Shown piece after piece: positions 9,896 to 58,195 of a stretch of DNA of 64,000 nt. The notes under the pieces are model-generated. The model made no database searches. It had not been told where the DNA came from and saw nothing but the letters and a program-made list of their open reading frames with translations. Source of the stretch: Octopus vulgaris (taxonomy: Eukaryota); NCBI GenBank assembly GCA_951406725.2, contig OX597815.1, positions 52,886,001 to 52,950,000 on the forward strand. The letters run 5' to 3'. A program made the translations under genes and the position numbers. How positions within the stretch are numbered: the stretch's first letter is position 1; each line of letters opens with the position of its first letter.

Positions 9896-9914
9896 AGATT
9901 CTTTATTTACACTA

Positions 9915-12325: not shown

Positions 12326-12453
<128 letters not shown>

Positions 12454-12611: not shown

Positions 12612-12687
12612 AATGCATACCTCGGTTTCGGTCTTAACAAAAGAATTACTTGCATAATTCAAGTGTCCGTGACTTCATCAGTACATT
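12612..12687 (-). ncRNA. Type I hammerhead ribozyme, unit 1
   Basis: Minus strand: aatgta-CTGATGA-agtc..[gaattat GCAA gtaattc]..gacc-GAAA-ccgagg-TA-tgcatt. Stem I is aatgta/tgcatt and the cleavage triplet is GUA. Confidence 0.8.
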
Positions 12688-13158: not shown

Positions 13159-13234
13159 AATGCATACCTCGGTTTCGGTCTTAACAAAAGAATTACTTGC
13201 ATAATTCAAGTGTCCGTGACTTCATCAGTACATT
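13159..13234 (-). ncRNA. Type I hammerhead ribozyme, unit 2
   Basis: Motif identical to unit 1. Confidence 0.8.
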
Positions 13235-13704
13235 CGGTCCTCGAGATGCAAACCGCAAGACTAACCCCAGCTCTCTGTGTCAAAACAGACACGTGCTTAG
13301 TCTTACTGATTACATCGGGAATAAAATTTCAAATGTCTTGGTTCTGGCGCGCTAAGAGACTCCTGAAGCGAAGGGCTGCAGTGAATAATTCCCTGCGGGT
13401 AATGCTTACAACTAGGGAACGTATTTATTTAAATATTTAAAAATTGAGGGAGATAAATTAATATTAATTTTAATATCAATTTAAAACCAGTAGTCCAGCA
13501 TTCAAAAAATCTGAGGAGTCAGAGAAAATTCAAATATATGTGTATATTGGCAGGGCTGGCCTGCTAGGTAGCCGGCCAGAATGCTAGAAGAAGATCATCA
13601 ACGATCAAACTACAAGGGAAATTCTCTAGAGGAAGAATTCAGCGAACACCAGAACCAAATTTGGCGGGCAGGACATATGAAAAATTAAATAAAAAACAGA
13701 CTTA

Positions 13705-13780
13705 AATTCATACCTCGGTTTCGGTCTTAACAAAAGAATTGCTTGCATAATTCAAGTGTCCGTGACTTCATCAGTACATT
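13705..13780 (-). ncRNA. Type I hammerhead ribozyme, unit 3 (two pairing-disrupting changes)
   Basis: Same core. One stem I change (tgaatt) and one change in the stem II hairpin (gcaattc). Confidence 0.65.
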
Positions 13781-13978
13781 CGGTCCTCGAGATGCAAACC
13801 GCAAGACTAACCCCAGCTCTCTGTGTCAAAACAGACACGTGCTTAGTCTTACTGATTACATCGGGAATAAAATTTCAAATGTCTTGGTTCTGGCGCACTA
13901 AGAGACTCCTGAAGCGAAGGGCTGCAGTGAATAATTCACTGCGGGTAATGCTTACAACTAGGGAACGTATTTATTTAA

Positions 13979-14037
<59 letters not shown>

Positions 14038-18604: not shown

Positions 18605-18605
18605 T

Positions 18606-19019
18606 CTTTTTACTCTTTTACTCTTTTACTTGTTTCAGTCATTTGACTGCGGCCATGCTGGAGCACCACCTTTAGTCGAGCAAATCGACCCCGAGACTTA
18701 TTCTTTGTAAGCCCAGTACTTACTCTATCGGTCTCTTTTGCCGAACCGCTAAGTGACGGGGACGTAAACACACCAGCATCGGTTGTCAAGCAATGCTAGG
18801 GGGACAAACACAGACACACAAATACACACACACACATATATATATATACATATATACGACAGGCTTCTTTCAGTTTCCGTCTACCAAATCCACTCACAAG
18901 GCATTGGTCGGCCCGGGGCTATAGCAGAAGACACTAGCCCAAGATGCCACGCAGTGGGACTGAACCCGGAACCATGTGGTTGGTTAGCAAGCTACTTACC
19001 ACACAGCCACTCCTGCGCC
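18606..19019 (-). mobile_element. SINE family A (tRNA head, CORE-like domain, LINE-derived tail), full length
   Basis: ggcgcaggagtggctgtgtggtaag..gggttcagtccc..ccagcatggccgcagtcaaatgactgaaacaagtaaaagag. Near-identical to 27536-27931. Confidence 0.88.
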
Positions 19020-19118
<99 letters not shown>

Positions 19119-19759: not shown

Positions 19760-19959
19760 CAGAACTTATTTTGACAGCATTCTGAAGATTCATCTGATGA
19801 CAGTACACATATAAATATACATATATATGTGTGTGTGTGTGTCTGTGCATGAGTATGCGCGTTTGTATGTTTGTCTATGTGTGCGTGTGTACGTGTTTGC
19901 GCGTGTGTGTGAGCATGTGTCTGTGTGTGTGCATGTGTATCTATGTGTGTGAGTGTGTG

Positions 19960-20215
19960 TGTGTGTGTGTGTTTGTGTCCATGTTTGTCCCCATCAGCAC
20001 TTGAAATCCAGAGTTGGTGTATTTACATCCCCATAACTTCATGGTTTGACAAAAGACTCCGATACAATAAGTACCAGGATTTAAAAAAAAAACAAAAACA
20101 AAAACAAATAATTACTGGGCTCTATTCGTACCACTAAAATTTTTCAAGGTGGTGCCCCAGCGTGGCCGCAATCTAATGACTGAAATGACTGAAGCAGGTA
20201 AAAGATAAAAGATAA
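19960..20215 (+). mobile_element. SINE family A, 3' half
   Basis: Tail aaggtggtgccccagcgtggccgcaatctaatgactgaa..gtaaaagataaaag. Further partial copies at 30880-31220, 36598-36756 and 53895-54237(-). Confidence 0.75.
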
Positions 20216-23200
20216 ACAGGACACAAGTTTTTCCCTTATTTAACGAAAAACCAAATTTTCTTTTGTGAGATTGTCTCTATCGTTCTGAGCATTAGAGAAT
20301 AAATACCGAACAAACTTCAGGACAACAGATTAAACTCGCTCGAAGCATGACGTTTTCCTGATACGTCCATTCATGTCCAGCATAATAATTACATGGTCCG
20401 CAAAAAATCAGAAAGCAGGAACTTTAACAAATTTTTATATTGGTCAAGTATATCTCATTCCTTATGCTTCTCGATTTTTATGCTATTTTCGGTTTTTGAC
20501 AAACGGACACAATAAATGGGTAAATAGAAAATGAACAGAAAATCTTTAAATAGCCTTATTGCTATTGGTTTCAAATTTTGACACAAGGCCAGCAATTTCG
20601 GGAATGGAGGCAAATCGATTACATCGACCCAGTTCTCAAATGATATTATTTTATTGACCTGGAAGAATGGAAGTTAAAGTCGACCTCGGCTAAATTTGAA
20701 CTCAGAACGTTTGGGCGGACGAGATGTCGTTAAGCAATTTTTCCCGGCGTGCTAACGATTCTACCAGCTCGTCGCTTTGTTGTGGCTGCTATTGTAGTCG
20801 TCATACTTCAAGTCAGCCAATCCCAGCAGATTTAAGATTAATAATGTTCCTGTAATATTTTCCTGTCATATTCTCAAACATTGTGTATGTAGGACTACAT
20901 TAAAGAAGCCTCCCATAACACACTGCATAGAGATAACTTAAATCCTTTTGAACCCACTCTTTCCTAGTTATTGCAACACTTTTCTTCCTTCGCAAACTAC
21001 TGTTCTTTAAGATTAGTAATCTTCTACTATAGCACCGGACCGACCAATGAATTTGGTTGACGGAAATTGTGCGGAAGCCCATCAAATCAATTTGTGTTTT
21101 GTTTTACGCCAGGTTGTGCATAAATAGATATTGCTTGCTTAATGATGAACCCTCAAATATACAAATTAGATTATCTACAACGGTGCTAGTCTTATTCACC
21201 ACTACTTTGTATGCAGTTGATCTATATTATTGAAAGGTGAAGAAAGCCAAGTAATCAACAAGACATGTAACCGTCTATCAGCAGTCTTTATCCCCTTTTT
21301 TTCCCTCTGTATATCCGAAGTATAAAGAATGTGTTTACATTCTTTTTTAATCCACAGGGAGGTTTTATAATATTTAAATTTCAGCTTTTCTGATTTAAGC
21401 TGTTATGCACAGTCAGACAGACAGGCAGACACACATACTTACACACACACGCACACACGTGTGTACTTTTTGCATTTGTGTGTGTGCCTTTATGTGTGCT
21501 CACAGATCATCCACTCTTATTTCTAATTAAATGACGTTCTATGTTCCTTTAATTAAAAAAATAATTAAAAAACTCTTTATCTGTCCAGTGTATCATATGT
21601 GATGCACAGGACATATTTTTCTGGCATCCTTGCATCATATATGCTACACATTCCCAACTTTTTCCAATCATCAGAGTAACTTATGAAAGGAAAGCTTTAT
21701 ATTCCTCAAAATGTACGTAACAAAAGCCGACTAAAAGTCTGAAAACAAATAATGGTCGTTTAGGATAAGCTTATGAAAATGTTTTGGACAGGCAAATGGT
21801 TAAGCTCATCTAATTGAGAGCAAGTTAAGTCCACCACCTTCTAATTATTTATATTTCTTTTCTATTAATTTAATTCTTAGGAGGAGGTGCCAATGTCATA
21901 ACTTACGGTTTACATTTTTCTTAAAGTTTCTGGTTTATGCTATCATCAAATATTGCTGTCATCACTCGTAATTTGTATAATATACAATTATTGCTGTCAT
22001 GACAGAACTCACTATTCGGTTACGAGTCTAACAAACACGGATTTAGCTTATTATATCAACCTGTTTAATGTTATTCATACTTGTTATTATGAAAAGCCCG
22101 AAAAGTGGCGAGTTGGCAGAAAAGTTTGCACGCTAGGTAAAAATACCTTGCAGTATTTCGTCTGAGTTTATATTCAGAGTTCAAATTCTGCCGAGATCAT
22201 CTGCACCTGTCATCATTTCGGGATGTGCCAATCGAGCATTGGGGTCGATGAAATCGACTTACCTCCTGCCCTGAAATTGCTGGGCTTGTACCAAAGCTTT
22301 AAACTATTATTACGAAAAGCCCATAATTTAGGACGTTCTCTTCCATTATTTTTAAATTCGTAGCTCAATCATTACAAATTTCTGAATAGCCTAAGAGGCA
22401 ACAGATCGAGACTAATTCATCAATATGAAACACAAATCTTCATAATCTTCATCCCCACTACGTTCAGGGTGGAAATCTATCACTTCCTTCATTTGATTAG
22501 AGACAAAGGCTTCCTCTACATAGTCATTTGATATTATAGATTGTGAAATTTTAAAATTATCCGGCTGTTACAAGGAAGTGTTACAAGAATAATGTAACCC
22601 TAGGTACCCAACTCCATTATATATATATGTAAAAAAAAAAAGATGGGATAATTACAAGGGGAACACTTATGAGCATAGATCTGCACGACCAGGGTTGACC
22701 TTAGCTAAACAACAGTGACAACAAGAGCAGCACCAGTAGTAGCAGCAGTAGCAGCATAGTTTTTGCAATCCAGTAAAACACACAACACACACGTCGCAAT
22801 AACAACGATAATCTTCAAATGCCAGCAGTTCATGAATGGTGATCTCTTCACAGAAAGGGAACATAACTTGTTTCTTTTTCTCATTTTTTTTTCTTTTTGA
22901 GCTGTTTGTTCAGTGGATGGAACACTAAGATAAAAGGTAAAAGAGAGAGAAAGAGAGAGAGAGAGATGGGGAGAGAGAGAAAAATTTCCTTATTTTTTGT
23001 CAGACGTGATTTTATTTCAACTTTCACAAGAATTTATAAATGGGAAAATAACCGTAAAAACAGAAATAAAGCAAGCTAGCGGTCATGTAAATGTTGTTTA
23101 TAATTTCTAGGTGTAAATAAAGACTGACCGTCTGGTATTTATCAACATTCCATTCCTCCTTGTCAGGGTACAAACATTGAGAAAAAGAATCAGGGCTGTA

Positions 23201-27304: not shown

Positions 27305-27535
27305 CAAAGTAAACTTCCAAGTTACCGCACGAGTGAAAATATATAGGAAAATGCAGAGGTCTTTTAAAGATGTTTATTGACTTGACCGGTTTCACTTTTT
27401 TAAAATAAGATTTTCAAAAGTAAAAGGAAAGTCTTTGCTTAGCCTTTGTTGTGTTAAAAAATGGTTATCATAGTTGTATTAAAATACAATGATACAGTCT
27501 TTGATAATGGTATGAAAATGTTAAGAAATAGAATA

Positions 27536-27931
27536 GGCGCAGGAGTGGCTGTGTGGTAAGTAGCTTGCTAACCAACCACATGGTTCCGGGTTCAGTCTTG
27601 GGCAAGTGTCTTGTGCTATAGCCCCGGGCCGACCAATGCCTTGTGAGTGGATTTGGTAGACGGAAACTGAAAGAAGCCTGTCGTATATATGTATATATAT
27701 ATATATATGTGTGTGTGTTTGTGTGTCTGTGTTTGTCCCCCTAGCATTGCTTGACAACCGATGCTGGTGTGTTTACGTCCCCGTCACTTAGCGGTTCGGC
27801 AAAAGAGCCCGATAGAATAAGTACTGGGCTTACAAAGAATAAGTCCCGGGGTCAATTTTTTCGACTAAAGGCGGCGCTCCAGCATGGCCGCAGTCAAATG
27901 ACTGAAACAAGTAAAAGAGTAAAGAGTAAAG
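27536..27931 (+). mobile_element. SINE family A, near full length
   Basis: Matches 18606-19019 with a small deletion after the B box. Confidence 0.88.
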
Positions 27932-28456
27932 AGAATCTTTGGCAATGATAAGAAAACATTAAGCGGGACTTTTGTTTAAGCAGTTAACATAAATGTGTTC
28001 AAAATAGGTAGTAAAATAAATTCATAATCATTTTAAGTTCATCAAAAATCATGATTGTAAAGAAGCATATATACAGAGAGAATCATATTTAAGTATTTAT
28101 ACAGAATATTAGGGAAATGACCAAGAATTTCTTCCTTCATCTCTAGTGTATGTGTGTTTAAGGGATGATTGCTATTTTTAAAAATAGTGTGGGAATAGTT
28201 GGTTGGTTGGTGGGGGAGAGCATTGTGGAATCAAAAGGATGTTTTTGTTTCTGGGCTAGTCTGTCATGGTTCAGTGGTTTTTGGAATGGTCTGGGAGTTA
28301 AAGACGGTATGTGTGTGTGTGTGTGTGTGTGTATAGATAGATGGATAGATAAATAGATAGATATATGCAAATACATATATACACGCACACACATATATAA
28401 TATATATACACACCTCACATATATACATATATACAACAATATATATATGTATAAAT

Positions 28457-32385: not shown

Positions 32386-32790
32386 ACACACACAAATATA
32401 TATATATATATATATTATATTATAAAATGAGATAGGGGTTGAAAATTCAACCCACCATGGGATAATATATATCCAATATACTGCTAGATAGGTACCCAAC
32501 AAAATAATACATAGATGTTAAAAATTGTCAAGCAATCAGTTCATCTATTGTATTAAATGGGTAAAGGTAATAATATTACCGTAAATTAATACTACAAAAT
32601 TAGAGAATGGAGAAACATACTTAAATCAGTAAAACATCAACTATCCGATGATACTCAATCCATACTTTAATACACCATTACATATGAGTAAAGGCAATAT
32701 ATAAAATGAAATGAGATATACAGTAATAGTAAAAGTAAAAAGATAAAGAGATATAAGTAAAAAATTTTTCAAATATAATATGCAAATAAA

Positions 32791-32908
32791 TCAAAACTGA
32801 CAGCTGTTTCGGCAGTGAGGACAGTCATACCTCATTTAACCTATAAGCCATAAAGGCAGGTATAAATGAGGCATTAACAAGGATGCCCCACGGCCTCTTC
32901 AGAGAATT
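32791..32908 (-). ncRNA. Type I HHR with long stem II (left arm)
   Basis: Reverse complement of 33661-33778. Confidence 0.75.
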
Positions 32909-33283
32909 AAATTAAATTTGTTATAATAGTGAAAAATATTATATAATCATATACATATAAATATAAAAATATAAAAATGTAAAATATAAAAACTTATATA
33001 TCATAATGCTACACTTATATAATATAATACACATTTGTACAAAAAGGAAGGTAAACAGAACAATATAAAACAAAATATATAACAGTGTATATATTAATAT
33101 TAATAAGTACCGATATTATACATATTTGGCTAATAGTTTTTTTTATAAAAAAAAGGGCTAACACATATGGAGATGAAAAATAATAATTAAATCCGTGGTA
33201 CAGTTCATAAAATTCGATCTTGAAAGGATGGACTTGGTGCTAACTTAACTGTATCTATTTTTAGTATTTTTTTATTATTATTA

Positions 33284-33324
<41 letters not shown>

Positions 33325-33660
33325 AGTAATTTTTATTAACTTTTATAGCTTTAGAATTTTATGAACTGTACCACGGATTTAATTATTATTTTTCATCTCC
33401 ATATGTGTTAGCCCTTTTTTTTATAAAAAAAACTATTAGCCAAATATGTATAATATCGGTACTTATTAATATTAATATATACACTGTTATATATTTTGTT
33501 TTATATTGTTCTGTTTACCTTCCTTTTTGTACAAATGTGTATTATATTATATAAGTGTAGCATTATGATATATAAGTTTTTATATTTTACATTTTTATAT
33601 TTTTATATTTATATGTATATGATTATATAATATTTTTCACTATTATAACAAATTTAATTT

Positions 33661-33778
33661 AATTCTCTGAAGAGGCCGTGGGGCATCCTTGTTAATGCCT
33701 CATTTATACCTGCCTTTATGGCTTATAGGTTAAATGAGGTATGACTGTCCTCACTGCCGAAACAGCTGTCAGTTTTGA
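33661..33778 (+). ncRNA. Type I HHR with long stem II (right arm)
   Basis: aattct-CTGAAGA-GGCcGTGGGG..tgcctcattta..taaatgaggta..CCTCACtGCC-GAAA-CAGCTG-TC-ag. Intact core, palindromic ACAGCTGT stem III, GUC triplet, weak stem I. Confidence 0.75.
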
Positions 33779-33976
33779 TTTATTTGCATATTATATTTGA
33801 AAAATTTTTTACTTATATCTCTTTATCTTTTTACTTTTACTATTACTGTATATCTCATTTCATTTTATATATTGCCTTTACTCATATGTAATGGTGTATT
33901 AAAGTATGGATTGAGTATCATCGGATAGTTGATGTTTTACTGATTTAAGTATGTTTCTCCATTCTCTAATTTTGTA

Positions 33977-34030
<54 letters not shown>

Positions 34031-35053: not shown

Positions 35054-35409
35054 TTAATGTTTCTTTATTAACATCAAGAGTTTATATTAAGAAAAACGTT
35101 ATGGAATGTGTTTGTGTATGTGTGTGAGTGTGTGTTGTGAGGATTTTGCAATAATAATAATAACCCATTTTATTAAATGCACAGGGCCTGAAACTTTAGT
35201 CGAAGTGACTAGTCGATTACATTGATTCCTGTATTTCACTGGTACTTAATTTATCGACCCCGAATGAATAAAAGGCAAAGTTGACCTCAGTGGAATTTGA
35301 ACTCAGAACGTAAAGATTGACGAAATACCGCTAAATATTTCGCCCAGCGTGCTAATGATTCTGCCAGCTCGTTACCTAAATAATAACAACAAGAACGATA
35401 ATAATAATA

Positions 35410-36478
35410 CGAAGCTCAGGGCTAAAAGCAGAGAGCGAAGGTTTCATATTAGCAGCTTATGATCAAAGCTTATTAACCAGGAACTACCAAACCAATGTGA
35501 TAAAAAATGGAGCTGACCCAAAATGCCGATTCTGTAACGTTGAAATTGAAACTATAGACCACCTAATCTCAGGGTGTAGAGTCTTAGCACCTGTAGAATA
35601 TAAAGCAAGACATGACAGAGTCGGCCAGTATCTACACTGGACAATATGTCGGCATTATAAAATCAAAACCGCTGACAAATGGTATAAACACCACCCTAAA
35701 ACTGCGACTGAATGAGAAAATGTTGTCGATTCTCTGGGACTTCCCCGTACAACCGACAAAACTATAAAAGCTAATAAACCGGATATTATTATAAAAGATC
35801 AGAAAAAAAGGTGTGTTTATTAATTGACATGTGTATTCCTTGAGATCACAATATAGCGGCGAAAGAATTTGACAAGATCAGTAAATATAAAGACTTGCTG
35901 ATAGAAATTGAAAAAAATGTGGCATCTGAAGACGACTACAGTACCAGTGATTGTAGGATCTCTAGGAATGATAAAAAAAAAAAGGTACTGAAACCTATTT
36001 GAAAATGATACCAATTTCTTTACTATCCACAAGGGGCTAAACACAGAGAGGACAAACAAAGACAGAAAAACGGATTAAGTCGATTATATCGACCCCAGTG
36101 CGTAGCTGGTACTTATTTAATCGACCCAGAAAGGATGAAAGGCAAAGTCGACCTCGGCAGAATTTGAACTCAGAACGTAGCGAGAGACAAAATACTGCTA
36201 AGCATTTCTTCCGGCGTGCTAACGTTTCTGCCAGCTCGTCGCCCTATTTGAAAATGATACCGTGTAAACTGGAACGACTCATGTAGTGAGAAGAGCATTA
36301 TCGCTGTGAAAACAACATCCATTCATGATTTTATTCATTTATTAATTTTTTTTTAAATGCATATTTTACCTCTGAATTTGTGTGTGTAATCTGGGAATGC
36401 ATACAATGAGCTTCTCTGCCCTAGGTGTACAGAAAACACTCGGCGAGAAATGGAAGAAAATTTGAAGAAAGAAAAAAA
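35410..36478 (+). mobile_element. R4/Dong LINE 3' region: CCHC finger plus REL endonuclease, interrupted by a SINE
   Basis: ESEGFILAAYDQSLLTRNY..CRFC..ETIDHLISGC..YKARHDRV..LWDF..ANKPDIII..LIDM..KISKYKDL..PVIVGSLG. Both flanks are TAA-rich. Confidence 0.92.
36013..36242 (-). mobile_element. SINE family B insertion with 19-bp TSD
   Basis: cctatttgaaaatgatacc at 35994-36012 and 36243-36261. Confidence 0.9.
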
Positions 36479-38200: not shown

Positions 38201-38671
38201 TATAACACCAGGATCAAGCAATACATATCTTAAATCACATCTCCACCAACCATCACAATCGCAACACGCACCAACCAACACGCGCCAACCATCACAATCG
38301 CAACCAACTACACACACTCGTCGATAGAGGGACAAGTACCCTCCCCAATTCCGTTTCTCCGACTCACAAGTCTACACTTAGAGGGTACCACTCACCTTTG
38401 TCGCAACTTCGGGGGAGGGGAAGTTCGGGAGAGGGGGTTAAGTCAGTCACATTGGCCCCGGTGCTCGAACTGGTACTTATTTGATCGACTCCTAAAGGAT
38501 GAAAAGCAATGTCAGCCTCGACGGTATTTGACCTCAGAACTTTCAGACACAGGAAATGCCGCTAAGCATTTTGCCCGGTGTGCTAACGGTTCTGACAGCT
38601 CGCTGCCCTACTACTACTACTACTACTACTACTACAACTACTACTACTGCTGCTGCTGCTGCTTCTGATGT

Positions 38672-40560: not shown

Positions 40561-43029
40561 AAATAATAATACTAATAATAATACTAATGCTAATAATTAT
40601 CGTTATTATATTAATGACTTCTAATTTAGGCGCAATGCCAGCAAATTTGAAGAGGCGGTCTTAGTCGATACTATAGACACCAGTACAGGATTTGTTTTAT
40701 TTTATTGACTACAGAGGAACGAAAGCTACAGTTGACCTTGGAAGAATTTGAACTCAGAACATAAAGTGGCGGAAGAAATATTGCTAAGCAATTTTTTCTG
40801 ATGCTTTAATGCCAATCCACTGGTATGATGATATTAAAAATTAATAGAGAAGTGCATAGAAATTATTCTACTGAGAACTTCAATAATTATTGTGATAGTA
40901 GAGACGACGGTGAACGTCAGGTGAGCTAAATAGATCGATAGATAGAGAAAGAAAGGAGTGAAGAAGACATGCAAGAGAAGGTGTAAAAAGTGTTAGCTGA
41001 GGTGATAGCAATGAAAAATGGAAGAAAAAAGGAGCAAAGGAGAAATGCCAACGAGTCTCCATAGATGTGTAAACACACGCATAATACATACATACATACA
41101 TACATACACACATACATATACACCTGCATGTATGTTTATATATATATGTATGTATGCATGTATGTATGTATGTATGTATGTATGTATGTATGTATGTATG
41201 TATGTATGTATGTATGTATGTATGTATGTATGTATGTACGTATGAATGCTGAAAACTGTAGTAACAGTGGTGTTGATATTGGCTGGTGTTAGTTAATGGA
41301 GTTGGTGATGGTAGATTTTGTAATCTGTAAAGAGTTGAAGGCGGTGAGCAATTTACTTATTTCTGTGAACTGAAACTTAAAGAAAAAAATTACTACAAAT
41401 TACTATGTGGTTTAACGCCTGCGTCTCAGTGCAAGTAATTGTCATCGTGCAATATCATCGTCGCCACTAATACACCGCTACTATGACTATCAACAAGGTA
41501 CAAACAACAGCCATCATAAACTCATAAGCACCAATATACATCATCACAGTCGCCACCATCACCAATTACTAATAACATATTTCTTCCTCTTTCTTATTTC
41601 CTCTGTCTTTTCCCTTGCTCTCTCTTTCTCTTTTATTTTTCTGTCTTCCTCTTTTTCTTTCTCCTTTGCGTTATAGAAAAGGTAGGCAGGAACGTGCTGT
41701 TGCATTCAACTATAAATAATATTCTTTTCTGATTTTTGCTCAAACCAGCAATCTTGAGAGAAGGGAGTTATTTAAAACCATCGACCCTAATACTAGACAG
41801 GAAACTTCATTTTATTAACCTCAGACAGATGAACAGCAAAATCGATCGCAGTGGAATTTGATCACAGAACGTATACAACCGGAATAGTTACTGTAAAGCA
41901 TTTTATCTGACGGTCAAATGATTTATGCTAATCCTCTCTATTATCTATGGCACTTCATGGCTTTGGCATGACTTGATAAGCTTTCCCCATACTGGTCGGT
42001 TTTTCGCTTGGGTTTACCATTTATCATGATCAAATCCTTTCTCCTTCCTGTTCCTTTTTTGCTGAATCTTTGAATGTCAGTCTAGGTTTCAAATTTTGAC
42101 ACAAGGTTAGTAATTTCAGAGGTTAAGTCGATTACATCGACACCAGTGCTTAACTGGTACTTATTTCATTTATCGCGAAAGGATGAAAGTCGATCCTGAC
42201 GGCTGTTGAACTTAGAACGTAAAGACAGACGAGACACCACTAAGTATGAACCATCTCTTACGTTAATGCGATATGTTAATACAAAAAGCGTATCCATGAC
42301 TATGCCGATAAAAGAGTGTTCCGGGATCTTAACCGAGTGTCTGGATTCGATCGCGAGTCGAGACTATCGACCCTAGTACTTGACTTATACTTTAGTTTAT
42401 CAACCCGGAACGAGCGAAAGGCAAAGTTCGCATCGGTGAGACCTGAAATCTGAAAGTAATGAGCCGAGAGAAATACCGCAAGGCAATTTGCGCGATTGTC
42501 TAAACATTTTGTCAATCTAACAACAACAAAGACAACAACAACAACAACAACAATAACAGCAGCAACAGCAACAGCAAGAGCAGCAGCAGCAACAACCACA
42601 ACAACAATAACAGCCACAACAGCAGTAAGAAAAAGGATAAAACACTGGAGCGTTATTATGAGAGAGAGCTTGTTAACTGCTAAAAAAAAAAATGAACTAC
42701 GATGATTAAATCAAAGAAATCAAATTGGGAAATCTCTTCCACCACGAAAATGTTAAAGCATCGCTGTGCAAGTAATACTTGTATTATCTATTGATTATTA
42801 CATCATATAATTAATGTATCACAAATATTCATAGTGGTCGGTTATCTGATGACACGTATAAACAAATCATCGGAGCATAGCTTAAACCATCGACTGATTG
42901 ATTTCCATCCGCAGACTACAAAAATGTTAAATAATTCAATAAAATTGTGCATACCTACACAAGCTTACTCCACTGTTCAGAATTTCAAGTCCCATTTTGT
43001 AGACATGTAATGTATGCCTGTACATATGT

Positions 43030-45620: not shown

Positions 45621-47167
45621 ATCGAGTAAGAGCTCAATCTGTATCAATCAGATCTTAAACTATACAATTTCTCCAGTCACTCTTTTACTTGTCAAAAAGT
45701 CCACCAGAAAAAGGGGATTAAGTATTCTCTTTTCACCAATGGGCTTGGTGTAAGAGAAACGTAGGGTCATATTTGTATTTTGTTGTATCTAGGGTGAGTC
45801 ATTATGCCAATATTATTAACACATGCACTGGTTCAGTTTCACTCTTTTATCAGTCAGTTGGTTAAATATCCAATTAACTAATCGATTGTTTGTATAATTT
45901 GCTTAAACAGTGTTATTTGTTTTGTTTTTGTTTGTCTAAGCTCTTTCATTGTTACTAGCGACTTCAATGACTTTTGACTCAGTCCGTTACAGAGGCCTCC
46001 CTAACGGACTAATAATACTGGCATAATGACTCTCCTTAGACACAATAAAATTTCTTTCAACACACGAATTCACATTAAGAATCTTGCAAACCAAATACAA
46101 AAACATATTTTATTCATTATTGTTTAATATCTAGTAATATACATTGAAAATTTTTCCCGGGATTAATACATTGAAGTAAACACGCACATACACATGCACA
46201 CGCACGCGCACTCACACACACACACACACACACATGTATAAATATGATGATTACCGCTTCTTGTCAGATGATGGTCGCTTCTCGCATTAATGAATGCATC
46301 ATTGGATTTACGTGACAAAAGCTTGTACAACAATTTTGCAACTCTTTCACCCACCATAGTAGTTTTCAGTGACAAGCAGTGCAAGATGACTGGTACTATT
46401 TTGACTGAAAGTTTCATATCAGAATATCTGTCTTGTAGAAGAGATACTTTCCCCACGGCTTGTCAAATATACCAAGAGCACTTCTACCGATGGGAAATCT
46501 ATTTAGCCCATAGATGGAAACCTGACAAAAGCTTCACCACCGTTTTCAGTTTAATGCGTCATTCGACCGATGTTCATGAAGAAAAAAAAACAAATAAACA
46601 AGTAAAAACACGAAAGAAAAATCTCAATGAAATATCGTGTAAATTATTTCCAGCAATGTATGATGCAGGGTACAATGTTTATATACAATGTTTGGAATGT
46701 TTAATATATATGCACATTACGAAAGCGGATATTTTAGTACATGAAGATTGTAATATATATTTTAAATGGAAACTTACTCATATTAACCATATGCTATGAA
46801 CCTATATTGAATAAAATTATATAATGTAATGTTGGTTTCCCAGTAATATATAGTGGGCATGTCATAATAGTATTTATATTAATATATATATAGAGAGAGA
46901 GAATATATGCGATATTGATTATTGACATAATATACCACTTTTAGTAAGTGAACTCTGATCAGAGACTAGCCTGACAATATAAGATGTTTTGTAAGAAGAA
47001 GTCTGTATCAAATATACGGAATGTATGTAATGTCGATACGCTTATTAGATACCAGTTTCGGCTTATTCCTTTTAAAATATTGTCATTTTTGAGGGCATAC
47101 GGATACTAGCATATACATACATGCATACATCCGTACATGGATATATGTACGTGTATATATATATATA

Positions 47168-47409
47168 TTAATATTTATCGCCAAACTAATATGGCAGTCC
47201 ATAAATATAAGACTAAAGCTGTCGCTGATTAGCTCCAACAGGCCACCGCCTCTAGCTAGCTATATGACACACGAACCTGCGTCCATTACAACCTTCGAAC
47301 AGGGGAGGTCAGCCGCTTCACCTTGCTGGTCAGACATCTGCAGACATGTTTCAGGGTTGTTGCCCTTTATCAATGCAGCGTAGTCAGACCCAGCAGGTGT
47401 CGCTACTGA
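47168..47409 (-). repeat. HHR-containing repeat, copy A (duplicated at 51074-51319)
   Basis: About 242 bp near-identical to 51074-51319. The left flank is (TA)n. Confidence 0.92.
47319..47399 (-). ncRNA. Minimal type I HHR with U3-A8 compensated core and extended stem I
   Basis: ctgca-TTGATAA-AGGG-caacaa-CCCT-GAAA-CATG-TC-tgcag (core 47338-47378). Stem I extends via gtctgac/gtctgac and cacctgctgg/ccagcaaggtg. Confidence 0.8.
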
Positions 47410-49131
47410 AATCTTTATTATAGGCACTAAGGCCCGAATTAAGAGGGGACATTACAAGACAGGACGTGGGGTACATAAAGTAAAAAAATCGAAAATTATG
47501 AATTGAAATGGATATTTATAATGGATTAGATGGAACGGCTTACGAGCCCCCCAAAGCTCGCAGTTTCATTTAAATTACAATTTTACAATTTACAATTTTA
47601 CAAATACATATATTACTCTGCTACGTCGGGCACTCTGTATAGTCTGGTCTTTCATCTGTTATATACTCCATTAAGCCATCCTGATCCACATCAGCTGGTA
47701 AGGTGTCAAAACGTAAATATAACCATTCAAATGCGCTATATTCATTCATTTTGCGTCACTGACTCTTTTTCCACGATTACCGCCTTCCAATATTTATCAA
47801 ATATTCCTGGGGTCAACTTTACTCTAACTAAGTCTTTCCTACCTGGCAACATCTTTTCTAAATTTTCGTCCTTGTCGTATAACATTACCACTCTGTGTTT
47901 CTTTCCCTTGGGTCCTCCTCCTCTCTTACAAGCTTTCAACTGCTGTTTCAATTTCCTGTCCCATTCTTCAACTGCTTTTAGCGGTTCACTCACTTCTGCT
48001 TTTGTATCCTCTTCTCCCGTCCGGTTTTCCTTCTCGTCAGTAATCTTATTTTTCGCTTTTTTCTTCTTCTTTTTTTTTGTTCTTTAGGTGGTGATTCCAC
48101 CAGCGTTCTTTTTCTATTTTCTTTCTCCAACTCTTCACCACTTTCCGCATTATCTGTAGTAACGATTTCTCCCTCCTCCACACACGCATCTTGCAACTCA
48201 TTCGTTGAAGTCTGCAGTGCTATCGTTTTCTCCTGTACTTCTCTCAGCGGACACACATCCTTCATGTGGCCTCTTATTTTGCATTTGTGATATACTGGGG
48301 GTCTCCTCTCCACCACGACTCTGAGACGTGTCTCGTCGGGGAACACCAACTCCTCCGGGATGTTATACAGGTCAGGCATTGTAATGTGGACTAACGCCTG
48401 CACTGCATAACCCCACCACTTTACATCTTTTGATTTTTCGACTTTCAACATTTCCACGTTTTCCTTGCAATTAAACACCACTGCTGCTAAAATCCTTTCC
48501 ATATTTAGTTCGGGCGAAATCTTGCTTATTCTTATTCTGACTGCCCTTTTCCCGCAGTAGCTTGGTAAAACATCCATCTATCAGTTTTTAAAATTTTCGT
48601 TGCGTTCTTCTTCGCCTCGTCTTCACTTTTAAAGAGGACGACCACCGTTGCGAACTTTCTACCTCTGTTGTAGTAGGTAGACTCTCCTTCTATTCCTTTA
48701 AGATAGCATTCAACTTCCTCTATCGGTGCCACTTCTATTTTTTTCGAAGTCACGCTCCATGTTTTGTACGTTATAATCCGTTTCTCCGCTTCTTCCGCTT
48801 CTTCTGGTGGTGTGACCTTCACACACTCACCCTCCTTCTTCAAGCTGTCGAAATACTTGTTCAACGTCTCCTTCTCGACGATGACTTCTTCTAACTGCAA
48901 TTCGTTTGCAACCAGGCCCTTGCCTGCTGCACCCGCATACGTCTGGCTTTCCATTTTCGAGAAAAAAATCTCAATAAAATTTTTCACGCCGTAACAACTT
49001 CCACCGCCGGATTCGATCTCACGAAACGCGCCACCACAATAACGTAGTCAAAATTTTTCCGCCGCCAAAAAAAATACAGCTACACAAATAACGCAATCAG
49101 AAATCTCCGTCACCAAAAACAAAAACAAGCG
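47410..49131 (-). mobile_element. ORF1(gag)-only non-LTR (Tx1/L1-like) element, copy 1, with TSD
   Basis: TSD ggtgtcgctactga(aa) at 47396 and 49132. The 3' end reads ..gccttagtgcctatAATAAAga. No RT or endonuclease sequence lies between the ORF stop and the 3' end. Confidence 0.8.
47621..48954 (-). pseudogene. Gag/ORF1-like nucleic-acid-binding protein with CX2CX4HX4C knuckle (~440 aa; 2 frameshifts, 1 stop)
   Basis: MESQTYAGAAGK..RRM-like segment..RVVVERRPPVYHKCKIRGHMKDVCP..RPDYTECPT*. Copy 2 retains CHKCKIRGHMKDVC. Confidence 0.8.
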
Positions 49132-49145
49132 GGTGTCGCTACTGA

Positions 49146-50942
49146 AATCTTTATTATAGGCACTAAGGCCCGAATTAAGAGGGGACATTACAAGACAGGA
49201 CGTGGGTTACATAAAGTAAAAAAATCGAAAATTATGAATTGAAATGGATTAGATGGAACGGCTTACGAGCCCCCCAAAGCTCGCAGTTTCATTTAAATTA
49301 CAATTTTACAATTTACAATTTTACAAATACATATATTACTTTTTTTTTTTTTTTCTTAAATAAAAAAAAAAGTCTTTTTTTTTTTAAAAAAAAAATCTTT
49401 TTATCACAAGTTATGGTTAGTTTCATAATTAATAATTAACATTTGATGACACTACTGGAATTTAATGAAGAAGTGTTAATATTCCAGTATTCCAGAAGCT
49501 GGTCCCTGTGTTTAAGAGCAGATGCTAGATGCAGTTGTTAAAATGCATAGGATACCACTTTTATATATGTATATATATGAATATATATATATATATATAT
49601 ATATATTCATATGTGTGTTCATTTGTTTTGTTTTTTTTTTATTCGTTTTTGTTTGTTCTTCATGTTTGAATTATTTTATGAAAGTACTTATATTAAATAA
49701 TGCTTCTTTAAGTTACTTCTCTATTTTCTCCACCAAAATAATGGAATTAATCAACTTTCTAACTCACACACACACACCTATACACTTATAGTCCATTTGG
49801 GATAATACATCAAGACGTCAAGTATAAGCAATCATCAGGCAAGACTCAACCAGTTACTAAAATATCCGTGTCGTATATATGTTGTGAGTATGTGGAACTT
49901 CATGTATTGTTGCATCTTGAGTTGAAAAGAAAAGGTTGTAAGGGCATAAAACATTACATGTTAATACTGTATGGGAGTTATTTCCTTTGGTTGGTTAAGA
50001 ATATAGTTGAAAGTCTTTAACCCTTTTGTTACCAACCCAGCCATATATTACTCTGCTACGTCGGGCACTCTGTATAGTCTGGTCTTTCATCTGTTATATA
50101 CTCCATCAGGCCATCCTGATTCACATCAGCTGGTAAGGTGTCATAACGTAAATACAACCATTCAAATGCTTCATATTCAATCATTTTCTTCACTGACTCT
50201 TTTTCCACGATTACCGCCTTCCAATATTCATCATATATACCTGGGGTCAACTTTACTCTAATTAAGTCTTTCCTACCTGGCAACATCTTTTCCATATTTT
50301 TGTCCTTGTCGTATAACATTACCACTCTGTGTTTCTTTCCCTTGGGTCTTCCTCCTCTCTTACGAGCTTTCAACTGCTCTGCCAAATTTCTCATCCATTC
50401 TTCCTCTATTGTTGGTTTTACCGGCTCACTCACTTCTGCTTTTGTATCCTCTTCTCCCGTTCGGTTTTCCTTCTCGTCAGTAATCTTGTTTTTCGCTTTT
50501 TTCTTCTTCTTTTTTTGTTCTTTAGGTGGTGATTCCACCAGCGTTCTTTTTCTATTTTCTTTCTCCAACTCTTCACCACTTTCCGCATTATCTGTAGGAA
50601 CGATTTCTCCCTCCTCCTCACACGCATCTTGCAACTCATTCGTTGAAGTCTCCAGTGCTATCGTTTTCTCCTGTATTTCTCTCAGCGGACACACATCCTT
50701 CATGTGGCCTCTTATTTTGCATTTGTGACACACTGGGGGTCTCCCCTCCACCACGACTCTGAGACGCGTCTCGTCGGGGAACACCCTCCTTCTTCAAGCT
50801 AACGAAATACTTGTTCAACGTCTCCTTCTCGACGATGACTTCTTCTAACTGCAATTCGTTTGCAACCAGGCCCTTGCCTGCTGCACCCGCATACGTCTGG
50901 GATTCCATTTTCGAGAAAAAATCTAAAAAACTTCACCACGCC
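49146..50942 (-). mobile_element. ORF1-only element, copy 2 (5'-shorter, 484-bp internal deletion, split by an insertion)
   Basis: The 3' UTR (49146-49340) continues at 50053. ORF remnants span 50056-50908. The deletion lies between two cacc microhomologies (copy 1 positions 48344 and 48828). Confidence 0.82.
49341..50041 (-). other. ~700-bp poly(A)-tailed retro-insertion with 11-bp TSD
   Basis: catatattact at 49330-49340 and 50042-50052. A T-run at 49341-49354 corresponds to a minus-strand poly(A) tail. Confidence 0.8.
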
Positions 50943-51228
50943 GTCACTACTGACTGTCTGTTCGAAGATTTTATTTACCTAGTTTCCGTGGAATACATCC
51001 ACTTGTTTTCAATAACAGAAATATTAAAATTACTAAGTCTCTCCAAAGGAGATTACGACAGCGTTCCTGGATATTAATATTTATCGCCAAACTAATATGG
51101 CAGTCCATAAATATAAGACTAAAGCTGTCGCTGATTAGCTCCAAGAGACCATCGCCTCTAGCTAGCTATATGACACACGAACCTGCGTCCATTACAATCT
51201 TCGAACAGGGGAGGGAGGTCAGCCGCTT

Positions 51229-51309
51229 CACCTTGCTGGTCAGACATCTGCAGACATGTTTCAGGGTTGTTGCCCTTTATCAATGCAGCGTAGTCAGACC
51301 CAGCAAGTG
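51229..51309 (-). ncRNA. Minimal type I HHR with U3-A8 core, copy A'
   Basis: Core 51248-51288 is identical to 47338-47378. Confidence 0.8.
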
Positions 51310-51319
51310 TCGCTACTGA

Positions 51320-51625
51320 AACTTGTGCATGCGTTTCTGACTGTGCCTCTAGGAAGATCGCCGAATACCTCCTTGATTTGGTCACCAGCTCGGCCTTTGT
51401 GGGAAGGTAGGACAGTATGTATATTTTCTCAACCACGCCCCACACATAGTAATCCATGGGATTACAATTAGTGTAAGGAGGAGGCCAGAAATTGGTGCTG
51501 GTGAAGTCGGAGAAATTCTCCGACAACCAATCTGATTTTTTCGCAGGTATGGCAAAGAGTAAATCCTGCTGCCACACATATTTCCTTCCAGCAGCAACCT
51601 TTTTCACCCAGGGATAGACCACAGA
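51320..51625 (-). mobile_element. Tc1/mariner-superfamily transposase fragment (DD37D/maT-like)
   Basis: PWVKKVAAGRKYVWQQD..WLSENFSDF..FWPPPYTNCNPMDYYVWGVVEK..VRNAC. Confidence 0.85.
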
Positions 51626-52089
51626 CCTACGCTAGTGAATAACGGCATTATGATATTCGGTGCGAATCATCATGATATACGCAACTCTTTTCCAGTATTC
51701 AGATGGCTTCCATTCTCCATATCGGCCAACTTTTCCTCAACTATACGTTTAATCCTTTTTCTCCCCAACGTTGGCTGTTCACCAGTATATTATGTTTCTG
51801 AAAAAAGGATACAATACTCACATTTAACCCCAACACCCTTTACAGTTATACTTCGGCTGCTGTTTTGCAAATATATCATAGTGTCTACAGAATTCTCTCC
51901 ATATCTTCCTTTCTCTTTCTCACAAACATTCCCTCTATTCTCTTCTCTCCTTACTCTCTTTCCCCTCTATCGCCGAACACCTTGATCTGCATATACATAT
52001 ACATATGTACATGCACACAGACTCACATATACATACACACAACGAGACATATATATATATTATACACACACGGTATCGGGGTTTAGTTC

Positions 52090-52732: not shown

Positions 52733-54289
52733 TTACATACATAAGCGTATGTATGTATATGCAGATATATACATGCATATATATATATACATGCATACCT
52801 ATATATATATGTGGGGGATATATATATATATATGTACGTTTACGTGCATGTATGTTTATAACTTAAATTCATTTTACAGTATTGCACCAAGAATCCATGT
52901 GGCTCAATATTTTTGTTCGGTCCTCAATTTCATATTGTGTCTCTAATCTCAATTAGGATGCAGAGATCTGCAAAATATTACATTTGATATTATCTGTTGT
53001 TAAGTATGAAAGAAGCAGTCTTGTGTTCTCACAGTGAGATGTTTGAAACATCATAGACTCCTGGTATATTTACCACCGAAATGATCTTGAAGTTGCTTCC
53101 TTGTCCAGGTTTCGGCTCCAAAGAGGTTTTCTATTTCTCTATACATGTCAAGAAGACCTGCCCTAGTACTGTGTGTGCGCGTGTGTGGGTGCGTGTGGGT
53201 ATGCCGGCGTGCCCTTGTGCATGATATGTATCTACTCACACACATGTATATATACATAATATACATGTTTATGTGCATAGACATATGTATGTATAATGTA
53301 GACCAGTGGTTCCGAACTTTTTCACAGTGGTTCGCAACCGTTTTATTTAAATGTGTTTTCCAACGGAAAACATAATATAACAGATATATGTACGTATCAT
53401 ATTCAATGCATAAACAATATCTATGCATGAAGTATCTGTATGCATGAATGTGGATATAATGCTTTACGAACAGTATAAGGTACCTGTTGATTTTCCATTA
53501 TATTTTTTCTAATAAAAGATATTTTCTCTTCTTTGTAAGTTATATTTATGAATTTAATTGTGTTTTTGGATAAATTGTAACTTTGATAAAATGCAGTAAT
53601 AAAAATTATTGGGAGGAAATAGATATCGATGAGCTTACACGGGGCAAGTCATCGGCTTTTATCAATGCGTGATGTCCAATGGAAAAATAACTCAATTTTT
53701 CAGTGTTAGTCATCAAACAGTAAATAACATAGTAGAGCGAAGAGGTAGATTAAAGAAGGACGTTGCTGAAAGAAGAAAAGTGGAAACCGCAAAAAGGATC
53801 TGAGTGGGAAAGGGAGCGATTAAGAGAGAAGTCGAAGTCATTAAACAGCAACTTCCAGTTGTTAGAGATAAAAGATACCATATTCTATGGATATCTTTTA
53901 GCCTTTATCTTTTACTTGTTTCAGTCATTTGAGTGCGGCCATGCCTCGAAGTATTTTTAGTCGCAAAAATCGGCTCCAGTACTTAATTTTGTTAAGCCTG
54001 GTACTTATTCTATCGGCTCGTTGACGATCTGTATAGTTATAGGGACGAAAACACCAGTACCGGTAATGATGTAACAGAGACAGACACAAAGACACACACA
54101 CACACACACACGCACACGCACACGTACACTCACAAGCACACACACAAACACAAGCACACACACGACACACACACCACACACACAACATACACACATACAA
54201 GGAATTTCTTTCAGTTTCCGTCTATCAAGTCCAGTCACACGTATGTATTAATGTATGTATGTATATATGTATGTATGTATGTATGTATA

Positions 54290-56829: not shown

Positions 56830-58195
56830 GCGTGGTGCATGCATGTATGTATGCGTGCGCGAACGCGCACATGCATGTATGTGCGCGCGCCTGCGAGTGT
56901 GTGTGTAAGTATGTGTGTGTGTGTGGATGTGTGTGTGTGTGTATGTGTGTATGTCAGGGTGTCTGTGTGTCCGATTGAAAGTATGTAAGTATGTGTGTGT
57001 ATATGTGTGTGTATAGGTGTATGCCCGTGTGTATGTGTGTGTGTATGTGTGCGAGTGTGTATGTATGTATGTGTGTATGTGTGGAAGTGTGTGTATGTGC
57101 ATGTGTGTGCGCGTGCATGCGAGTATGTGAGTAAGTGTGTGTGTGTGTGTATGTGTGAGTGTGTATGTGTGTATGTCTGTGTGTATGTGTGTATGTGTAT
57201 GGGTGTATGTATGTATGTATGTGTGTGTGTATGTGTGGAAGTGTGTGTGTGTATGTATGTATGTATGTGTGTGTGTATGTATGTATGTGTACGTGCGTGT
57301 GTGTGTGTATGCATGTATGCGTACATGCGTGTAGGTGTGTGCGTGTGCATGCTTGCATGCGTGTGCGTATGTATGTGTGTGTGTGTGTGCATGTGTGTAA
57401 GTATATATGTATGTGCGTATATGTGTGTGTATGTGCATACATGTGTGTGTGTGTATGCATGTGTGTGTATGTAGGTGTGTAGGCGTGTGTGTATAGGTGT
57501 ATGTGTGTATGTATGTATGGGTGTGTGTCTGTGTATGTTTGTGTGTGTGTATGTATGTATGTATGTATGTATGGGTGAGGGTATGAGTGTATGTAAGTGT
57601 GTGTGTACGTATGTAATGTATGTATGTATGCGTGTGTGTGCGTGTGTATGGGTGTGTGTGTGTATGTAGGTGCGTATGTATGTGTGTGGGAGTGTAGGTA
57701 TGTGTGTGTGTGTATGTGTGCGTGTGCGTGTATATGTTGGTGTGTGTGTATGTGAGTATGAGTGTATGGGTGTGTGTCATGCATGTGTGTGCGCGTGCAG
57801 GCGAGTGTGTGTAAGTATGTGTGTGTGTATGTATGTGTGAGTGTGTATGTGTGTATGTCTGTGTGTATGTGTGTGCGTATAGGAGTATGTAAGTATGTGT
57901 GTGTGTATGTGTGTGTGTATGTGTGTGGGTGTATGTATGTATGTATGTGTGTATGTGTGTGTGCATGTGTGTATGTATATGTGTGTGTGCGTATATGTGT
58001 GTAGGCGTGTGTGTATAGGTGTATGTATGTATGGGTGTGTGTGTGTGTAGGTATGTATGTATGTATGAGTGAAGGTATGACTGTGTGTAGGTGTATGTAT
58101 GAATGTATGTAAGTGTGTGTGTGTACGTGTGTGATGTATGTATGTAGGTGTGTGTGTGATGTATGTATGTAGGTGTGTGTGTGTGTGTGTATGCG
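56830..58195. repeat. Long degenerate (TG/TA)n low-complexity tract with internal higher-order duplication
   Basis: gcatgtgtgtgcgcgtgca.gcgagt.. recurs at ~57099 and ~57781. Confidence 0.9.

Follow-up and report, generated by a model that had tools for sequence, protein, structure and literature searches.

A putative U3-A8 hammerhead retrozyme repeat of Octopus vulgaris with two same-site insertions of ORF1-only LINE-like elements

Background

The retrozymes of the mussel Mytilus galloprovincialis, which measure 350–390 bp and occur in about 5000 copies, are reported to cut and circularise, and a target-site duplication, reported “when present”, is not obligatory for animal non-LTR retrozymes (PMC7229834); neither octopus nor other cephalopods figure in this work. 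Retrozymes have been linked to the pLTRs of Penelope-like elements (10.64898/2026.07.22.740005). Natural hammerhead ribozymes with a U3-A8 pair have been published as well (PMC3088659, PMC4209133): such variants were reported to be active in vitro (PMC3088659), and about 1,300 of them are described from Penelope-like elements of Schistosoma mansoni (PMC4209133). According to the latter study, minimal Penelope-type hammerheads cleave poorly in vitro even as dimers. Among LINEs, members of the Tx1 clade are described as targeting other mobile elements, with Tx1 inserting into Tx1D and Tx1-Mar into Mariner-N4_AMi (PMC4494074), and HAL1 (half-L1) is presented as a non-autonomous LINE derivative encoding ORF1p only (PMC5753468). 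In the open-access literature, none of the publications listed dealt with octopus hammerheads, and we found none treating retrozymes and Tx1 together.

Here we analyse a 64,000-nt stretch of O. vulgaris DNA (contig OX597815.1, positions 52,886,001–52,950,000, forward strand), termed the window, to which all coordinates refer. The region at 47168–51319 is probably a 1.7-unit piece of an abundant 366-nt U3-A8 hammerhead repeat, likely a retrozyme, which was split by two ORF1-only LINE-like elements inserted at the same nucleotide (Table 1).

Table 1 Features of the split repeat and its surroundings
Feature	Position	Strand	Remarks
Monomer A, partial, 245 nt	47165–47409	−	96% identical to A'; 3' end enters TA repeat
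Hammerhead motif, type I	47338–47378	−	U3 47373, A8 47368; predicted cleavage 3' of C17 (47343)
14-nt duplication of element 1, left copy	47396–47409		Within 5' arm of the hairpin
Element 1, LINE-like, 1722 nt	47410–49131	−	Contains ORF1 alone, between about 48954 and 47621, with three frameshifts
14-nt duplication, right copy	49132–49145		18 nt with one mismatch; regenerates insertion site
Element 2, relative of element 1	49146–50946	−	Body 93% identical, about 470 nt deleted
701-nt insert in element 2	49341–50041	−	T run at left end; 11-nt duplication 49330–49340 / 50042–50052
7-nt duplication, 5' end of element 2	50947–50953		Joint 47402 to 50947, 7 letters fit both sides
Complete 366-nt monomer (spacer + A')	50954–51319	−	43% G+C, non-coding
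Spacer start, 13 nt	50958–50970	−	Perfect complement of 51196–51208; closes predicted circle across junction
Interrupted long hairpin extending stem I	51219–51319	−	5' arm 51289–51319, 3' arm 51219–51247
Hammerhead motif, type I, identical	51248–51288	−	U3 51283, A8 51278; predicted cleavage 3' of C17 (51253)
Right flank, presumed Tc1/mariner-like transposase piece, degenerate	51322–51631	−	Translation; fused to A' at element insertion nucleotide

Results and discussion

Both hammerhead motifs of the preliminary description, identical to each other and with the U3-A8 pair, were found where it had placed them; they lie on the minus strand, which it had left unstated. Each consists of a stem I of 5 bp, a stem II of 4 bp, and a stem III whose 2 bp and 2-nt loop together make up a 6-nt palindrome, and its core contains, besides the U3-A8 pair, GAAA and the GUC triplet; stem II, the palindromic stem III and GUC are as they had been described. 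The three helices with the open end in helix I place the motifs in type I, and in a dimer helix III would be the 6-bp palindrome, for which a duplex energy of −4.6 kcal/mol was computed. The closing pair of stem II is A10.1-U11.1 in both motifs, the usual one being G-C. Stem I is extended by an interrupted hairpin, as had been noted, but this exceeds the length of about 20 bp given for it: folding predicts 22 further pairs after the 5 bp, in helices of 5, 2, 3, 7, 2 and 3 bp. The energy predicted for the 111-nt hairpin, −40.5 kcal/mol (z −3.5), was equalled by none of 200 shuffles.

In two scans of the whole window, which covered hammerheads of type I layout in which positions 3 and 8 are complementary, these two motifs were the only matches. 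The repeat had been introduced as a “second” one, but these scans revealed no first, and an additional hammerhead array elsewhere in the window was rejected as a candidate. Rfam gave no match in the window at the gathering score, below which variant cores may fall, and a pattern scan of metagenome contigs returned no loci.

Removal of positions 47410–50953 reduces the distance between the cleavage sites from 3910 by 3544 to 366 nt, as had been proposed, and the reconstructed junction does occur uninterrupted elsewhere: empty-site or head-to-tail joints were present in the assembled contigs of four of four sequencing runs (X1, X2, X3 and X5, from four studies and three organism codes); in all, six out of 24 listed runs were analysed. 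One empty-site joint, from 47402 to 50947, leaves out precisely 3544 nt, 7 letters being common to both sides (X1, X2, X5); another leads from 47409 to 50956/60/71 (X1, X2, X3, X5), and a head-to-tail joint leads from 51300/51301 back to 50957/50960 (X1, X2, X3). Joints between opposite strands, also present within the repeat, fit the inverted insertions described for Penelope-type elements (10.1101/2021.04.23.441226). The head-to-tail monomer is further supported by the predicted 13-bp closing helix, since this requires the start of the spacer; when 20-nt arms were shuffled 5000 times, a helix of 13 bp never arose. Folded as a circle, the monomer has a predicted energy of −120.5 kcal/mol, as compared to −88.4 ± 5.7 kcal/mol in 100 shuffles, none of which was as low (z −5.6). 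Its longest stop-to-stop frame, of 121 codons, is on the opposite strand and has a late first Met.

In run X1, depth summed over the core was about 2.6e5, while single long variant contigs had depths of 45–129; summed contig depth is inflated by overlapping contigs and is not a copy number, so that this difference of about three orders of magnitude indicates many copies rather than a count. A contig of run X10, guessed to be RNA, is identical to the window over 47336–47409 and continues for 66 letters into spacer-like sequence. No target-site duplication around the array was visible between 47150–47185 and 51298–51335, and the right end may be lost. The flanking piece beyond it had no match in Pfam; from its motifs, we take it to be of the Tc1/mariner type.

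For retrozymes, a monomer of about 170–400 nt, a G+C content below 50% and the absence of coding capacity are taken as characteristic, and the octopus monomer (366 nt, 43%) falls within these limits. The retrozyme reading of the preliminary description thus gains support, at the level of sequence, from the head-to-tail monomer, the uninterrupted junction, and a size within the mussel range, and the array is likely an animal non-LTR retrozyme, with cleavage and circles as predictions. With the retrozymes of M. galloprovincialis, as described in PMC7229834, it shares tandem non-coding repeats, a type I hammerhead, a G+C content below 50%, a mollusc host and a predicted self-paired circle; the Mytilus repeats are present in thousands of copies, and the octopus repeat differs from them by its U3-A8 and A10.1-U11.1 core and by the very long extension of stem I. 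The retrozyme class may thereby extend to cephalopods, although supplementary family lists of earlier papers could already contain families from cephalopods or tandem families with U3-A8. The Cercyon motifs of S. mansoni, as far as detailed in PMC4209133, have in common with the octopus motif a compensated 3-8 pair and a dimer-dependent palindromic helix III. However, they are heterogeneous and mostly single, whereas the octopus variant is uniform and belongs to a tandem family, has a helix II of 4 bp, and retains a 6-nt palindrome in helix III.

That the U3-A8 combination preserves the tertiary 3-8 pair, as had been proposed, is supported by PMC3088659, but the novelty implied for it fails in view of the natural cases published there and in PMC4209133. 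Nor does covariation argue for selection on ribozyme function, as had been suggested: two near-identical copies and a single state among the relatives do not constitute covariation, and the argument was rejected. Over 249 aligned columns, A and A' are separated by 5 substitutions and a single indel of 4 nt. By our own arithmetic, chance alone would leave a 41-nt core unaltered in about 4 of 10 cases between copies that are 96% identical, so that its identity says nothing on selection. The co-occurrence of U3 and A8 across copies, a check proposed earlier, yielded no C3 or G8 letter at the 4% level in 228, 353, 10 and 6 contigs, this level being the lower limit of view; contigs drop rare variants. 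The same scarcity of variants covers most of the hairpin arm, indicating homogeneity of the family rather than a constraint specific to the core. Judged from these contigs, U3-A8 is a fixed trait of the whole family, most likely inherited once from the founder, and it preserves the 3-8 pair.

The 3.5-kb block between the motifs, treated earlier as a mere interruption, turned out to consist of two retroelement insertions at the same site and is the part of greater interest. In element 1, ORF1 is followed by a 3' region of 211 nt with a word resembling a poly(A) signal, but there is neither a poly(A) tail nor an ORF2. Element 2, which likewise lacks ORF2, has a short and different 5' end and the same 3' terminus; the 701-nt insert within it looks like a retrocopy. 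All frames between the motifs are pieces of ORF1 of at most 245 codons; the studied region 47168–51319 contains no Penelope-like ORF, and none with the reverse transcriptase (RT) and GIY-YIG domains of an autonomous Penelope-like element.

A search with ORF1 identified 108 relatives, and nine of the ten looked up bear names from Octopus or Argonauta. A Pfam search with five frames of the window gave one zf-CCHC and one DUF587 match, both below threshold, and a PDB profile search returned CCHC knuckles and nothing else. The homologue P0005, which shares 36% and 39% of residues with the two pieces from the window, has a zf-CCHC domain above the cut-off and two predicted RRM-like domains (best Z 8.9, rmsd 2.2–2.8, 75–82 aligned); LINE ORF1 structures were not among the fold matches listed, which excludes nothing. 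Two RRM-like domains and a CCHC knuckle correspond to the arrangement known as type I ORF1 in L1/Tx1 (PMC5203782), an assignment made on P0005; this arrangement occurs in other LINE clades as well. Lacking ORF2, and hence an RT phylogeny, the elements cannot be fixed to a clade. HAL1 elements are mammalian, possess a type II ORF1 and are poly(A)-tailed. The octopus elements differ from them by an ORF1 of the RRM and CCHC kind, the missing tail, an octopod-specific family and a presumably independent origin; like HAL1 (PMC5753468), they would be non-autonomous LINE derivatives coding for ORF1p alone, and their ORF1 runs straight into the 3' end in the absence of ORF2.

The two elements sit at one nucleotide of the hairpin arm, with duplications of 14 and 7 nt, and in three of the four runs (X1, X3, X5) a 5' end of the element-1 type meets this very site, with spacer following. 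Among six listed contigs with the 3' terminus, from relatives 88–93% identical, five continue into non-hammerhead sequence and none enters the arm; these contigs derive from 30 of 602 pieces, of which the longest were kept, a choice that disfavours short junction contigs. In PMC4494074, a target preference is recognised when more than 20% of flanks are one sequence, and the contigs considered here do not amount to an unbiased flank count. An estimate of the arm-joined fraction of 3' ends from the depth step at 47440 was dropped, because the step could just as well be due to a variant listed at 47440. In their last 208 columns, the elements differ by one mismatch and one indel, whereas their bodies differ at 42 of 754 positions, meaning that local gene conversion or duplication has acted on the junction; the two insertions may thus not be fully independent. 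Two elements at one spot hint at a preferred landing site, although some relatives have other flanks. Features that would be shared with Tx1-clade LINEs, as presented in PMC4494074, are the repeated use of one position within another repeat, short duplications and a type I ORF1. The octopus case differs in that the target is a ribozyme repeat, the preference is unquantified, relatives are flanked otherwise, and ORF2 and an RT phylogeny are lacking.

It seems unlikely, yet deserves consideration, that the repeat descends from a retrozyme or a Penelope pseudo-LTR whose motif no longer cuts and that it spread in a satellite-like manner or by passive retroposition, with U3-A8 as a frozen trait of the founder. 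The two departures from the canonical core (U3-A8 and A10.1-U11.1), an inactive fold that competes equally in the isolated motif (−9.1 vs −8.8 kcal/mol), the low in vitro activity reported for minimal motifs (PMC4209133), and a core conservation inseparable from family homogeneity would all agree with this. However, both changes retain Watson-Crick pairs, the remaining core positions, the three stems, the palindrome and GUC are all intact, the monomer is strongly self-paired as a circle, and U3-A8 ribozymes are reported to be active (PMC3088659). Less probable still is that the repeat represents the terminal repeat of a Penelope-like element in short tandem runs rather than an independent retrozyme that runs an RNA cycle of its own. 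In two runs guessed to be RNA (X10 and X11), contigs measuring 1903 and 2513 nt carry the family motif with one difference over 47348–47389, preceded on the 5' side by 1818 and 2333 nt of other sequence, and U3-A8 was originally tied to Penelope-like pLTRs; but these contigs depart from the monomer on either side of the motif, and the runs contain direct monomer-to-monomer joints. The two runs may be DNA, and their contigs, which carry no strand or circle information, are not evidence of expression. The arrangement of repeat, 3.5 kb and repeat also resembles a Penelope-like element, as if both motifs were terminal repeats of one composite 4.1-kb element with the middle block as its own cargo. 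This is very improbable and was rejected, being largely refuted by the empty site in four of four runs, by a block that has no RT or GIY-YIG frame and comprises two units related to each other, both with short duplications at their borders, and by a summed depth of the block about a hundredfold lower than that of the repeat.

In the favoured reading, a retrozyme hit twice by LINE-like elements, arrays would be transcribed on the minus strand, and neighbouring motifs would pair via the 6-nt palindrome to form helix III and cut after GUC, releasing 366-nt monomers that would become self-paired circles. These would be copied back, here into a TA repeat, by a reverse transcriptase/endonuclease of the Penelope-like kind supplied in trans. 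An L1/Tx1-type partner enzyme may have made two successive nicks in the plus strand after 47409, the duplication from the first insertion having regenerated the site for the second; one subfamily would prefer the site, rather than being strictly specific. With the motifs set 3.9 kb apart by the insertions, this copy has probably ceased to give rise to monomer circles.

A more speculative scenario, which we regard as rather doubtful, is that the ORF1-only LINE family parasitises the retrozyme, homing to the one nucleotide of the arm, being co-transcribed, and having its RNA excised by the neighbouring hammerheads; the excised RNA would carry target sequence at both ends. R2 exploits the transcription of rDNA together with an HDV-like ribozyme of its own; the octopus elements would act similarly, but with a ribozyme belonging to the host repeat. 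In X1, two contigs with 5' ends of the element-1 type (depth 131.7 and 45.9; identity to the window about 98% and 86%) stop at 49133, from where a joint of depth 179.4 leads into one spacer variant. An element that brings retrozyme sequence along, or that invariably inserts into it, would be expected to show this pattern.

Conclusions

Searches with the canonical core, and Rfam at its gathering score, appear to miss an entire abundant family. Being uniform for U3-A8, this family lends itself to testing the 3-8 pair in nature, in a ribozyme that depends on dimers. Should the same-site insertions reflect true targeting, ribozyme repeats would have to be added to rDNA, snRNA genes and DNA transposons as places where LINEs can land safely, and they might lend the passenger LINE transcription and RNA processing.

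Junction and monomer of the interrupted repeat

The predicted cleavage sites of the two hammerhead motifs are spaced 3910 nt apart, and subtraction of the inserted block of 3544 nt leaves 366 nt; the stretch 50954–51319 alone, consisting of spacer and copy A', represents one entire monomer. The start of the spacer (50958–50970) pairs perfectly with 51196–51208, forming a 13-bp helix of a length which 0 of 5000 shuffled arms reached. Since this helix is sensible only if the spacer adjoins the hairpin arm, i.e., one strand of the interrupted stem I extension, it supports the reconstructed junction. Contigs of four (X1, X2, X3, and X5) of 24 listed public sequencing runs were compared with 47050–51450. 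Among the joints listed, the joint 47402 to 50947, which skips exactly 3544 nt with seven letters fitting both sides, was present in X1, X2, and X5. In all four runs, 47409 was joined to 50956, 50960, or 50971, with variant spacer starts, and head-to-tail joints led from 51300/51301 back to 50957/50960 in X1, X2, and X3. Arithmetic, helix, and contig joints thus confirm the head-to-tail 366-nt monomer which the preliminary description had obtained by excising the insert, and the uninterrupted site exists elsewhere, as indicated by empty-site joints in each run.

Summed depth, which is not a copy number, was 3–4.5 × 10^5 over the monomer in X1, about 100-fold higher than over the inserted block; over the core it was 2.6 × 10^5, as compared to 45–129 for single long variant contigs (likewise no copy numbers). 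We infer that the repeat is present in hundreds to thousands of copies.

Features of the repeat, its insert, and other repeats in the window
Feature	Position	Strand	Remarks
Predicted cleavage base C17	47343 and 51253	minus	from motif layout
Element 1	47410–49131	minus	one frameshifted ORF of ~444 codons; 211-nt 3' region
Element 2	49146–50946	minus	body 93% identical to element 1; ~470 nt missing
14-nt duplication	47396–47409 / 49132–49145		bounds element 1
7-nt duplication	50947–50953		bounds element 2
701-nt retrocopy-like insert	49341–50041		within element 2; T run at left end
11-nt duplication	49330–49340 / 50042–50052		brackets 701-nt insert
Tandem repeat	12444–13984		~545-nt period; units 98–99% identical
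420-nt repeat	18605–19023 and 27532–27934		inverted copies, 93% identical
420-nt repeat, more copies	near 19956–20210 and 53897–54111
Foldback or MITE-like palindrome	32589–33980		1.4 kb; own reverse complement at 94%
Dispersed repeat, SINE-like in size and number	9912–10125, 20562–20780, 35185–35377, 36072–36246, 38435–38610, 40663–40796, 42085–42247		130–220 nt; 70–80% identical
Degenerate GT-rich microsatellite	56834–58195		1.3 kb; extreme strand skew

Hammerhead motifs and the U3-A8 core

Both 41-nt motifs (47338–47378 and 51248–51288) are located on the minus strand, at the positions described preliminarily, and are, as noted there, identical to each other. Helix I comprises 5 bp and helix II 4 bp, whereas helix III consists of 2 bp and a 2-nt loop, together a 6-nt palindrome. 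The core reads U3-U4-G5-A6-U7-A8-A9, plus GAAA and the GUC triplet; besides U3-A8, the closing pair A10.1-U11.1 of helix II is its second departure. The 111 nt around the motif form one long predicted hairpin (–40.5 kcal/mol, z –3.5, equalled by 0 of 200 shuffles). For an isolated single motif, an inactive fold is predicted to be as favourable as the active one. Two whole-window scans with the type I layout revealed no further hammerhead, including in the tandem repeat of ~545-nt period, and Rfam had zero matches to the window at gathering score.

Natural U3-A8 cores are not novel; they have been published, their activity in vitro having been shown earlier (PMC3088659), and about 1,300 U3-A8 hammerheads of Schistosoma mansoni were reported to be found via a Penelope-like element (PMC4209133). 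In a survey of 47336–47485 against 228, 353, 10, and 6 contigs of runs X1, X5, X10, and X11, respectively, with differences listed from 4%, the sole substitutions at this level concerned 47379 and 47440; neither C3 nor G8 was present at ≥4%. U3 and A8 co-occur as a near-fixed family state. At this level the two letters go together, as anticipated, but the presumed covariation falls away, since there is no alternative state. Because the arm was nearly variant-free too, and contigs lose rare variants, the survey does not demonstrate core-specific constraint. Copies A and A' differ by five substitutions and one 4-nt indel over 249 columns, a divergence at which the 41-nt core would remain unchanged by chance in about 4 of 10 cases; the argument for selection is therefore not sustained.

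Inserted LINE-like elements and their insertion site

The insert comprises two related elements, oriented as the ribozyme, whose ORF has 108 relatives; nine of the ten looked up bear Octopus or Argonauta names, which makes an octopus the probable host. The two ORF pieces of the window are 36% and 39% identical to the homologue P0005, which contains a CCHC knuckle and whose model, of high confidence over the first 230 residues, shows two RRM-like domains (best Z 8.9, rmsd 2.2–2.8, 75–82 residues). L1/Tx1 elements are reported to have this combination as their type I ORF1 layout (PMC5203782), and the ORF is, as judged through P0005, a predicted ORF1 of this type. Neither element contains an ORF2, and the ORF1 layout is shared by other LINE clades; the elements would work like HAL1, described as having ORF1 without ORF2 (PMC5753468). 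An RGS protein annotated in O. bimaculoides, P0069, has a piece of the ORF1 family in its model, being either a gene-model chimera or an exonised element. Contigs of X1 and X2 end at the right edge of the 701-nt insert.

The 3' ends of both elements adjoin the hairpin arm at an identical nucleotide position. Among the joints listed, the element-1-type 5' end continues via the insertion site into the spacer (49145 to 50957) in X1, X3, and X5, with depths of 179.4, 14, and 66.6, respectively, the X1 value being the sum of two element-1-type 5' contigs, both ending at 49133. Tx1-clade LINEs preferring other mobile elements are known (PMC4494074). The 5' joints in X1 share a single spacer variant; this fits repeated targeting no better than a head carried by the element or the amplification of a single insertion. 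Among the longest 30 of 602 pieces, a selection by length which works against short junction contigs, five of the six contigs that reach the 3' terminus of the element (88–93% identical relatives) have other flanking sequence, and no contig of the six extends into the arm. The last 208 columns of the elements show one mismatch and one indel, as compared to 42 differences over 754 positions of the bodies; the near-identity, which takes in 18 nt of the arm (47392–47617 vs. 49128–49340), indicates that local gene conversion or duplication has acted at the junction. The other flanks, this conversion or duplication, and the shared spacer variant weigh against strict targeting; for a real preference of the subfamily for the arm site, we consider the chances about even.

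The outer end of A' (51319–51321) coincides with the nucleotide of the insertion site, where a degenerate transposase piece (51319–51631) is fused to A'. We take this piece, which did not match Pfam, to be Tc1/mariner-like from its motifs. Possible explanations for the shared end are cleavage by the enzyme of the insertions, a fixed start of transcription, and microhomology.

Relation to retrozymes

Folded as a circle, the monomer is predicted at –120.5 kcal/mol, as compared to –88.4 ± 5.7 for dinucleotide shuffles (n=100, none as low). Size, G+C content (43%), tandem order, abundance, absence of coding capacity, and the self-paired predicted circle make it likely that the repeat is an animal non-LTR retrozyme. 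Mussel retrozymes are reported to have 350–390 bp, ~5000 copies, slow cutting, and accumulating circles (PMC7229834); the 366-nt octopus monomer agrees in size, in line with the preliminary assignment to the animal range. A 2026 preprint ties repeats of this type to Penelope-like pseudo-LTRs (10.64898/2026.07.22.740005). The 3' end of the array passes into a TA repeat, and contigs contain opposite-strand joints within the repeat; either feature fits insertion of the Penelope type (10.1101/2021.04.23.441226; PMC11167929). Contigs of 1903 and 2513 nt from X10 and X11, runs presumed to be RNA, carry the family hammerhead near their 3' ends, matching 47348–47389, and their flanking letters agree between two organisms and two studies; they could represent an autonomous Penelope-like partner or an mRNA bearing the motif.

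The weak cutting in vitro reported for minimal motifs (PMC4209133), the second core departure, and the predicted equally stable inactive fold count against a cleavage cycle. In such a cycle, multimers would be transcribed from the minus strand, helix III would be completed between two motifs via the palindrome (predicted duplex, –4.6 kcal/mol), cuts after GUC would release 366-nt monomers, and these would be converted to circles and copied in trans.
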